Shown here piece after piece: positions 15,145 through 15,536 of a DNA stretch of 64,000 nt. The DNA lies in assembly GCF_003334405.1 (NCBI RefSeq), contig NZ_QOWM01000003.1; one strand, 5' to 3'. The translations under genes were made by a program, and so were the position numbers. This DNA is from Escherichia coli (lineage in GTDB: Bacteria; Pseudomonadota; Gammaproteobacteria; Enterobacterales; Enterobacteriaceae). Under the pieces are notes generated by a model. The model saw nothing but the letters and a program-made list of their open reading frames with translations. It did no database searches and was not told the origin of the DNA. Position 1 is the stretch's first letter, and the number at the start of each line of letters is the position of its first letter.

Positions 15145-15172
15145 TTACCTAAAATAGCCTTTTGATTTCCAA

Positions 15173-15216
15173 TAAAAAAACCGCCTCAGTTCTTTCACCA
15201 GAACGGGCGGTTTTTA
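15173..15216. terminator. Bidirectional terminator after yebY (also the likely 3' end of RyeA)
   Basis: A-run, hairpin ccgcctcagttctttcaccagaacgggcgg, T-run. Confidence 0.6.
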
Positions 15217-15430
15217 ACATTTCAGCTGATGACCACCACGCTTTTTATTGACCATTTTGCACGCAAACTGGAAAACCTGGCGTCGTCATCTATTCTTAAA
15301 GGGCAAGGCAACTAAGCCTGCATTAATGCCAACTTTTAGCGCACGGCTCTCTCCCAAGAGCCATTTCCCTGGACCGAATACAGGAATCGTGTTCGGTCTC
15401 TTTTTATCTGTTAAAAGCCAGAAGCATTTC
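15176..15430 (-). ncRNA. ryeA: RyeA (SraC) antisense sRNA, approximate extent
   Basis: Established knowledge that RyeA is encoded opposite SdsR in the pphA-yebY intergenic region; the 3' end is placed at the bidirectional terminator and the 5' end is a guess. Confidence 0.4.
15303..15405 (+). ncRNA. sdsR: SdsR (RyeB) sigma-S-dependent sRNA
   Basis: Sequence gcaaggcaactaagcctgcattaatgccaacttttagcgcacggctctctcccaagagccatttccctggaccgaatacaggaatcgtgttcggtctcttttt matches SdsR as I recall it, ending in its own hairpin plus T-run. Confidence 0.8.
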
Positions 15431-15536
15431 CTTCGCTGACTTTATAGTCAACCATAACACACACTCTACTGTCTGAGTCCAGCGTTTTTTAACATTCTTG
15501 TTAAGATTATGTGATCTTTAGCGCGGGAGGAAAATA

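Follow-up and report, generated by a model that had tools for sequence, protein, structure and literature searches.

The SdsR/RyeA small RNA pair in the yebY-pphA gap of Escherichia coli: overlapping genes, a predicted two-way terminator and a prophage attachment site

Gene content of the yebY-pphA gap

The window analysed here is a 64,000-nucleotide stretch of E. coli DNA (contig NZ_QOWM01000003.1), whose plus strand carries, in order, yobA, yebZ (copD), yebY, a gap and pphA. The yebY coding sequence (14803-15144, plus strand), placed from the open reading frame list and the mapped NC_000913.3 annotation, is the last gene of the yobA-yebZ(copD)-yebY cluster, and the phosphatase gene pphA (prpA) occupies 15540-16196 on the same strand (NC_000913.3 annotation; PMC6610125). 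Positions 14209-16209 are the exact reverse complement of NC_000913.3 1922300-1924300 of E. coli K-12 MG1655. The 392-bp query 15145-15536 matches E. coli K-12 strains at 100% identity and was found in every complete E. coli genome searched (5,426/5,426). The first-pass annotation had placed the gap in the right region, giving its length as 392 bp; its end at 15536 corresponds to a TTG upstream of the RefSeq pphA start codon, and the RefSeq ATG at 15540 extends the gap to 15145-15539, that is, 395 bp.

We are practically certain that this gap of E. coli K-12 carries the overlapping small RNA genes sdsR (ryeB) and ryeA (sraC). The pair is already known here, the locus having been experimentally characterised in K-12 itself, and the curated K-12 record lists a 'small regulatory RNA SdsR' (b4433) and a 'small antisense RNA RyeA' (b4432) at the gap. 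A scan of the whole window at Rfam gathering thresholds, the check that the first-pass annotation had proposed, returned four matches, two within the gap and two elsewhere. The two in the gap are full-length: RF00111 (SdsR_RyeB) at 15306-15405 on the plus strand (114.4 bits against a gathering score of 38, E = 1.8e-21, model positions 1-100 of 100), and RF00101 (SraC_RyeA) at 15409-15265 on the minus strand (175.1 bits against 37, E = 2.9e-40, model positions 1-145 of 145). Nothing that we found contradicts the identification.

PGAP-annotated E. coli genomes list no feature at the yebY-pphA gap, and in thousands of genomes the stretch therefore seems to be empty. This blank is an effect of the annotation pipeline, not an absence of the genes, and for the window itself the finding matters only as correct annotation. 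It should be noted that sequence identity, coordinates, folding and conservation of sequence elements were established in this analysis, and that transcript ends, sigma-factor dependence, mutual degradation, interference and pphA read-through are drawn from published K-12 experiments. These experiments apply directly to the SdsR of the window because its sequence is identical to that of K-12.

Promoters, ends and terminators of the two RNAs

SdsR lies downstream of yebY on the same strand, as also stated by Frohlich 2012 (PMC3333887), with yebY ending at 15144 and SdsR starting at 15303. The RNA was mapped by RACE to 15303-15404 on the plus strand, with a length of 100-102 nt; it starts 1 nt downstream of the annotated 5' end, carries a 5' triphosphate (Choi et al. 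2019, PMC6610125), and has 3' ends at +100 to +102, equivalent to 15402-15404 (PMC6610125). Compared with the RefSeq feature (15302-15405, 104 nt), the mapped RNA of up to 102 nt is thus 1 nt shorter at each end. SdsR folds with -34.8 kcal/mol (z = -3.9), and its terminator stem has three compensatory pairs in a comparison of 16 distant sequences. This Rho-independent terminator (15371-15405, plus strand), located by scan and folding, consists of an 11-bp stem at 15371-15399 and a U-run at 15401-15405; the hairpin followed by CTTTTTATCT was the only element between 15000 and 15700 to pass a strict terminator scan. Together with the RF00111 match and the K-12 annotation, the hairpin bears out the first-pass recognition of SdsR in the gap with a terminator of its own. 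In vitro, sigma-S holoenzyme yields an SdsR of about 100 nt, the end of which was ascribed to Rho-independent termination (PMC6610125). The terminator is nonetheless leaky, read-through yielding pphA mRNA both in vitro and in lacZ fusions (PMC6610125).

Read against the mapped start, the sdsR promoter (15269-15299, plus strand) is of the sigma-S type. It comprises a -35-like TGGAAA (15269-15274), a 16-bp spacer, a C at -13 (15290), the -10 element TATTCT (15291-15296) and an A/T-rich discriminator TAA (15297-15299), with +1 at 15303. All the marks of sigma-S selectivity described by Frohlich 2012 (PMC3333887), namely C at -13, a -10 element near CTAYRCT, an A/T-rich discriminator and a 16-bp spacer, can be read in this sequence. 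Experimentally, sdsR is transcribed in vitro by sigma-S holoenzyme alone (PMC6610125), and a sigma-S ChIP-seq peak lies at ryeB (PMC4447067). The gene of the window is thus the same gene as that of the SdsR/RyeB family (RF00111; E. coli b4433; Salmonella SdsR), identical in sequence to K-12 and sharing the family's upstream yebY, sigma-S promoter with C at -13 and intrinsic terminator.

The antisense RNA RyeA (SraC; b4432) runs from 15443 to 15174 on the minus strand (270-272 nt from RACE, in vitro transcription and annotation; RefSeq 15443 to 15172, 272 nt) and encloses all of SdsR (15303-15404) as well as the sdsR promoter. The ends of both RNAs were mapped in the literature by RACE, primer extension and in vitro transcription (PMC6610125). 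Three starts are known for RyeA, with the mapped 5' end at 15443, and 3' RACE placed its ends at +261 to +270, equivalent to 15183-15174, at the edge of a hairpin stem and in the U-run (PMC6610125). Sigma-70 holoenzyme alone produces a RyeA of about 270 nt in vitro, from which the authors conclude Rho-independent termination (PMC6610125). These ends, and the annotated end at 15172, agree with the first-pass proposal that the opposite-strand RNA stops at the hairpin at 15181-15210. Of the two discrete transcripts expected there, the plus-strand SdsR of about 100 nt is as proposed; the minus-strand length of about 250 nt falls short of the mapped and annotated 270-272 nt, 249 nt being an older annotation figure.

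On the strand opposite to sdsR and beyond the sdsR terminator lies the ryeA promoter (15451-15482, minus strand), a sigma-70 promoter of the extended -10 type by its sequence relative to the mapped start. The extended -10 element TGTTATGGT at 15459 to 15451 is positioned 7 nt upstream of 15443, and mutation of the -10 element abolishes RyeA (PMC6610125). Further upstream, a conserved CTGGAC (15482 to 15477) may serve as the -35 element, TGGACT standing at a long spacing of 19 nt. A simple sigma-70 consensus scan detected neither promoter, as expected since the sdsR promoter is of the sigma-S type and that of ryeA is an extended -10 promoter.

The gene of the window is the same gene as that of the SraC/RyeA family (RF00101; b4432), being antisense to all of SdsR, transcribed from an extended -10 promoter of the sigma-70 type past the sdsR terminator, and ending at the yebY-proximal hairpin. 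The family model itself is a poor witness to this. Most of RF00101 consists of SdsR and the sdsR promoter in reverse complement, and the model covers just 145 nt (15409-15265) of the 270-272-nt RNA, omitting both its 5' end (15443-15410) and its 3' third with the terminator. The model scored 51-173 bits in all 15 SdsR loci tested, Shewanella and Yersinia included. We therefore rejected the match as independent proof of RyeA, as it scores wherever SdsR exists (Yersinia, Serratia and Shewanella among them); being essentially antisense SdsR, the Rfam RyeA model alone cannot demonstrate that RyeA exists, and the case for RyeA rests on the K-12 experiments.

The hairpin at which RyeA ends is the core of a predicted two-way intrinsic terminator (15174-15215, both strands) made up of an A7 run (15174-15180), the hairpin CCGCC...GGGCGG (15181-15210) and a T5 run (15211-15215). 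With A's on one flank and T's on the other, the element could terminate transcription in either direction. The first-pass coordinates of this element were exact, and the fold is strong on both strands, at -19.8 kcal/mol (z = -6.7) on the plus strand and -20.6 kcal/mol (z = -4.8) on the minus strand, with 0/200 shuffles equalling it on either. The strict terminator scan missed this bulged hairpin, which we do not count as absence because the scan demands strict stems. The hairpin begins 37 nt past the yebY stop codon, and we infer that it also terminates yebY transcription on the plus strand.

Conservation of the locus and insertion of prophages

We scanned species-representative genomes with the SdsR core TAGCGCACGGCTCT-N6-AGAGCCAT and obtained at least 120 loci, those listed belonging to the Enterobacterales with the addition of five Shewanella. 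In the alignment of these loci the promoter and body of sdsR (15265-15410) are nearly invariant. Mean identity of the sdsR promoter to E. coli is 0.75 across about 120 listed species, reaching 0.8-0.99 at the hexamers; for sequence belonging to RyeA only, the corresponding means among the listed loci are 0.32 (15406-15443), 0.38 (ryeA promoter region) and 0.35 (15216-15265). In nearly all listed Enterobacterales loci with enough flanking sequence, the end of yebY lies 176-250 nt upstream of the core of SdsR. Among the loci listed, pphA adjoins sdsR only in Escherichia and a few Citrobacter. This pattern of yebY linkage and conservation reproduces published conclusions (Frohlich et al.).

The arrangement of A-run, hairpin and T-run recurs 123-133 nt upstream of the SdsR start in at least 69 Enterobacteriaceae loci. 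In the 69 listed, the mean folds on the two strands are -20.5 and -19.7 kcal/mol and the inner stems take 63 distinct sequences; the 5' A-run is kept in 69/69, with a minimum length of 4 and a mean of 6.3. Judged from this comparison, the structure of the two-way terminator is conserved within the Enterobacteriaceae and the sequence of its inner stem is not. The design was not found outside this family among the loci listed, and inspection by eye downstream of yebY in Yersinia, Serratia, Rahnella and Dickeya revealed no obvious intrinsic terminator. An ad hoc finder for yebY terminators with a T-run only, lacking the A-run, was applied to other families and recovered 30/71 known positives.

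The promoter of ryeA shows a similar restriction. Within the 300 nt that follow sdsR, the minus strand carries the K-12-type motif (CTGGAY, 15-24 nt, TGnTATSKT) in 29/115 listed loci, at a distance of 17 to 82 nt from sdsR; the -10 part of the motif has a background of 0.007 per 300 nt. All 29 belong to the Enterobacteriaceae among the loci listed, the genera including Escherichia, Citrobacter, Enterobacter, Kluyvera, Leclercia and Lelliottia, and also Cedecea, Atlantibacter, Pseudescherichia and Silvania. A second candidate antisense promoter motif, TGWGRTATAA, the type assigned to Klebsiella, is present in 20/115 listed loci (background 0.0005). Neither motif was detected in Yersinia, Serratia, Rahnella, Hafnia, Dickeya or Shewanella among the 115 listed loci. 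As far as sequence motifs can tell, the RyeA-specific elements, promoter and two-way terminator, are confined to the Enterobacteriaceae among the listed loci and so share a phylogenetic range, which may be no more than a result of common descent.

The 3' end of sdsR has a further role as a prophage attachment site. The attachment core (15380-15406, both strands) comprises the 3' half of the SdsR terminator and the U-run. In E. coli 2003-3014, a lambdoid prophage of about 46 kb lies between the 3' end of sdsR and pphA, and both of its junctions carry the att repeat ACAGGAATCGT(A/G)TTCGGTCT(T/C)TTTTTA of about 27 bp. Integrase and excisionase genes adjoin sdsR, and the effector gene nleG7 is at the far end. 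In this lysogen SdsR is intact, and the prophage displaces the ryeA promoter along with ~37 nt at the start of ryeA. E. coli O103 RM8385 is another lysogen with the prophage at sdsR. The query is split in 237 of the 5,426 E. coli genomes, and the prophage junction at sdsR is carried by 227 of the 5,426 (~4%); one strain carries an IS1 inside sdsR, at about window position 15311. Across species, 21 of the 82 listed loci with enough flanking sequence have a gene for a related integrase, or a piece of one (43-81% identity), on the minus strand at 69-284 nt past SdsR.

Salmonella provides the precedent for this use of the site. The attachment site of PhiW104 is given as the last 23 bp of ryeB (Balbontin 2008, as cited in PMC7380047), and judging from that citation the insertion hot spot of Salmonella ryeA/ryeB is the same ~23-27 bp of the sdsR 3' end that is used in E. 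coli. In contrast to occupied sites of the PhiW104 type, the K-12 site of the window is empty and pphA directly follows. When we searched a phage collection with the integrase arm, only one oddly labelled record was returned, and no named sdsR-integrating E. coli phage was identified. The ryeA promoter sits a short way past this core, which would expose it to being detached or exchanged when an element integrates, as seen in ~4% of E. coli genomes.

We tentatively raise the possibility that RyeA is a younger, Enterobacteriaceae-specific layer on an older SdsR, that phage insertions have repeatedly cut off or replaced its promoter, and that lysogeny thereby rewires the timing of the system. SdsR may then be much older, extending at least to Shewanella, and the added layer may consist of the antisense promoter CTGGAC...TGTTATGGT together with an A-tract joined to the yebY terminator. 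Our search of the literature on SdsR in Shewanella found nothing relevant. Such a history is largely foreshadowed by Frohlich 2012 and Balbontin 2008, and only its breadth and the co-distribution of terminator and promoter would be new. More generally, the breadth of attachment-site use, the two types of antisense promoter, the conserved two-way terminator and the Shewanella SdsR are modest extensions of published work.

Mutual control of SdsR and RyeA

On the published evidence, SdsR is made late in exponential growth and in stationary phase, from a sigma-S promoter close to consensus, and stops at its own hairpin; RyeA is made by sigma-70 polymerase, runs antisense across sdsR and its promoter and stops at 15181-15210. 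The two RNAs pair over the full length of SdsR and RNase III cuts the duplex; through this cleavage each RNA depletes the other, RyeA acting as sponge, antitoxin or antagonist. As a second restraint, transcription from the ryeA promoter interferes in cis with the sdsR promoter. In K-12, RyeA builds up during exponential growth and SdsR from the late part of that phase onward, inactivation of either -10 element raises the opposite RNA, and on co-expression each RNA promotes the degradation of the other (PMC6610125); RyeA levels are also higher when rpoS is mutated (PMC4447067). Among the clusters of RNase III double-stranded RNA captured by p19 in stationary phase, that of ryeA-ryeB ranks first in abundance and has the signature of 21 bp and 2-nt overhangs (PMC7373196). 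The earlier wording of 'an sRNA and its sponge' is thus a fair short description of a pair for which the papers report mutual, RNase III-dependent degradation. Two aspects of the locus lie beyond that wording: the ryeA promoter causes transcriptional interference, and polymerase reads past the sdsR terminator into pphA. In K-12, such read-through, starting from the sdsR promoter, is the main route of pphA expression (PMC6610125).

RpoS-dependent expression of SdsR in stationary phase and its repression of target mRNAs in trans are supported by experiments in K-12 and Salmonella (PMC6610125, PMC3333887, PMC4447067). Overexpression of SdsR is reported to be toxic through repression of yhcB, and RyeA to relieve this toxicity (Choi et al. 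2018-2019). Papers have named the two RNAs both a toxin/antitoxin pair and a trans-acting sRNA with its cis-encoded antagonist (PMC8687705), the former label resting on overexpression. The likeness to type I toxin-antitoxin systems such as hok/sok and ibs/sib is that a cis antisense RNA neutralises a toxic partner and RNase III cleaves the duplex; however, the SdsR 'toxin' is a non-coding sRNA repressing yhcB and not the mRNA of a toxic peptide, and its toxicity, unlike that in the type I systems compared, is reported only on overexpression. Another parallel is CJnc190/CJnc180 of Campylobacter jejuni, likewise an overlapping antisense pair in which a trans-acting sRNA is antagonised via RNase III, whose authors name SraC/SdsR as a comparable candidate (PMC8687705). 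The sequences and organisms are nevertheless unrelated, and RNase III has the further function in Campylobacter of processing the active sRNA to its mature form.

Three other explanations of the locus have to be set against a functional antisense pair. RyeA could be a by-product, with only the act of transcription from the ryeA promoter mattering through interference with the promoters of sdsR and pphA. Transcription from the ryeA promoter indeed lowers sdsR and pphA in cis, RyeA supplied in trans has no effect on pphA and mutation of the ryeA promoter alters only a few genes (PMC6610125), to which the poor conservation of the RyeA-specific stretch 15216-15265 can be added. The accelerated decay of each RNA upon co-expression, an effect in trans, and the prominence of the ryeA-ryeB duplex among RNase III substrates in vivo speak against this reading, as does the rescue of SdsR toxicity by RyeA overexpression, reported by Choi 2018 as cited in PMC8687705. 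We consider it unlikely that the RNA is a mere by-product; RNA titration and transcriptional interference probably operate together.

The shared hairpin raises a related question, since its position shortly after the yebY stop codon and its plus-strand T5 would suit a terminator of the yobA-yebZ-yebY cluster alone, with an incidental A-run and RyeA ending there by chance or processing. Such a coincidence is very improbable, given that purified polymerase already gives the ~270-nt RyeA that the authors attribute to Rho-independent termination, that RACE maps the ends to the U-run or the edge of the stem (PMC6610125), that the minus-strand fold is as good as that of the plus strand, and that every listed Enterobacteriaceae hairpin retains its A-run despite the many different inner stems. 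We also considered whether the region encodes a protein, as the mechanical list of open reading frames includes one of 63 amino acids at 15248-15439 on the plus strand, overlapping sdsR. This frame begins with TTG, has no ribosome-binding site on reading the sequence and spans the sdsR promoter, sRNA and terminator; conservation follows the RNA boundaries (15265-15410) and not those of the frame, and the curated K-12 annotation has no coding sequence here. On start codon, ribosome-binding site, conservation and annotation we rejected it as a gene, and regard a protein product as having next to no likelihood. The antisense RNA pair, with RyeA ending at the two-way terminator, is the reading that we retain.

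The locus is a textbook case of opposite-strand small RNAs that control one another, and it connects the sigma-S stress response to targets in the envelope, efflux and mismatch repair. As prophages attach within the sdsR terminator, the control exerted by SdsR and RyeA on each other may differ in lysogens. If RyeA is indeed the younger layer, lysogeny would rewire the timing of expression of SdsR, pphA and the targets of SdsR.

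A prophage attachment site in the SdsR terminator

In E. coli 2003-3014, a lambdoid prophage of ~46 kb is integrated at sdsR; within the SdsR terminator, the 3' half (window 15380-15406) forms the prophage's attachment core. At this insertion (extracted locus L002, 12236-13469; L124, NZ_CP101292.1 3375000-3424500), the prophage integrase adjoins sdsR and the effector gene nleG7 lies at the opposite end. Of 5,426 complete E. coli genomes, 227 share this junction; O103 is among them, as are other STEC-like strains. In the junction-bearing genomes the promoter and 5' end of the antisense sRNA gene ryeA are cut off from the rest of that gene. 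When a phage collection was searched with the sdsR-site integrase, the sole matching record was PP818812.1 (46302-47508, 97% identity). This record is labelled 'Actinobacillus phage vB_Apl-pPE4', an odd host given its near-identity to E. coli prophage sequence.

Rearranged and divergent sdsR loci

Both sRNA genes are disrupted in strain FDAARGOS_944, where an IS1A is inserted within sdsR/ryeA (L003 11249-11946, NZ_CP065613.1), with the break at approximately window 15311/15312. The neighbouring copD of this genome is annotated as truncated. A different arrangement was observed in Yersinia artesiana (L019, ~7976-8300), where yebY is encoded on the other strand and runs towards the 3' end of sdsR, whereas in other Yersinia it lies upstream of sdsR on the same strand; there may be an inversion at the Y. 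artesiana locus.

Full-length SdsR_RyeB matches of 82-87 bits were found in five Shewanella species among the matches listed (L030 9565-9667, plus strand; L098, L058, L076 and L041), with a differing 5' stem and a terminator that carries compensatory changes. The linkage of sdsR to yebY does not extend to the Shewanella locus L030, where sdsR is not downstream of yebY and instead lies immediately 3' of a 512-aa ORF resembling RsmF/YebU; in E. coli, rsmF is ~1.4 kb beyond sdsR. Searching the literature by text brought up no account of SdsR in Shewanella.

Other promoter and sRNA matches

Only one match to a sigma-70-like consensus was found in the region (CTGAAA, 16 nt, TAAAAT; window 15128-15155, plus strand); it overlaps the yebY stop codon and lies upstream of the two-way terminator that ends RyeA. 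A heat-shock promoter of pphA had been assigned in older literature to a site ~180 bp upstream of the sdsR promoter, and Choi et al. 2019 (PMC6610125) found this pphA promoter to be inactive; the sigma-70-like match is roughly at the assigned site. Among sRNAs, a borderline RydC match (48.9 bits, gathering score 48) lies ~180 nt from sdsR in Klebsiella pneumoniae ATCC 13883 (L085 7017-7079, plus strand), and a full-length Rfam match to sroD was found at window 50407-50492 (plus strand, 115.2 bits). The Rfam cspA thermoregulator also matched at window 30898-31358 (plus strand, 135.5 bits, gathering score 78), which, from its K-12 position, we take to be probably the yobF-cspC region and not cspA itself.

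Integrases beside sdsR across species

Downstream of the SdsR terminator, many loci carry tandemly repeated ATTTCG(G/T)G-like units at a distance of 30-90 nt (for example L005, L032, L023, L090, L060 and L093, and also L002 12290-12306), and a degenerate terminator-half copy (AGACCGAATA...) often lies ahead of them. Among the matches listed, loci with an adjacent integrase have these repeats more often (9/21 loci, versus 4/61 without), and the repeats may represent arm-type integrase sites; the K-12 window has no such repeats. A second extended -10-like motif facing sdsR, TGWGRTATAA, is present in 20 of the 115 loci among the matches listed, against a background of 0.0005 per 300 nt (for example E. 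albertii, L007; Klebsiella oxytoca, L062; Raoultella, L061 and L091; Pluralibacter, L013). It is unlike the K-12 ryeA promoter sequence, and a terminator-like copy often comes after it; the motif could be an alternative antisense promoter that arrived with an integrated element.

An integrase gene or fragment adjoins sdsR in 21 of 82 species-representative loci among the matches listed, on the minus strand and 69-284 nt past the SdsR 3' end (for example L047, L090, L110, L100, L005 and L039). These integrases are related to that of the E. coli prophage (43-81% identity), and the species carrying them range from Yersinia and Serratia to Citrobacter and Kluyvera. These neighbouring integrases suggest that the attachment site at sdsR is used across Enterobacterales.
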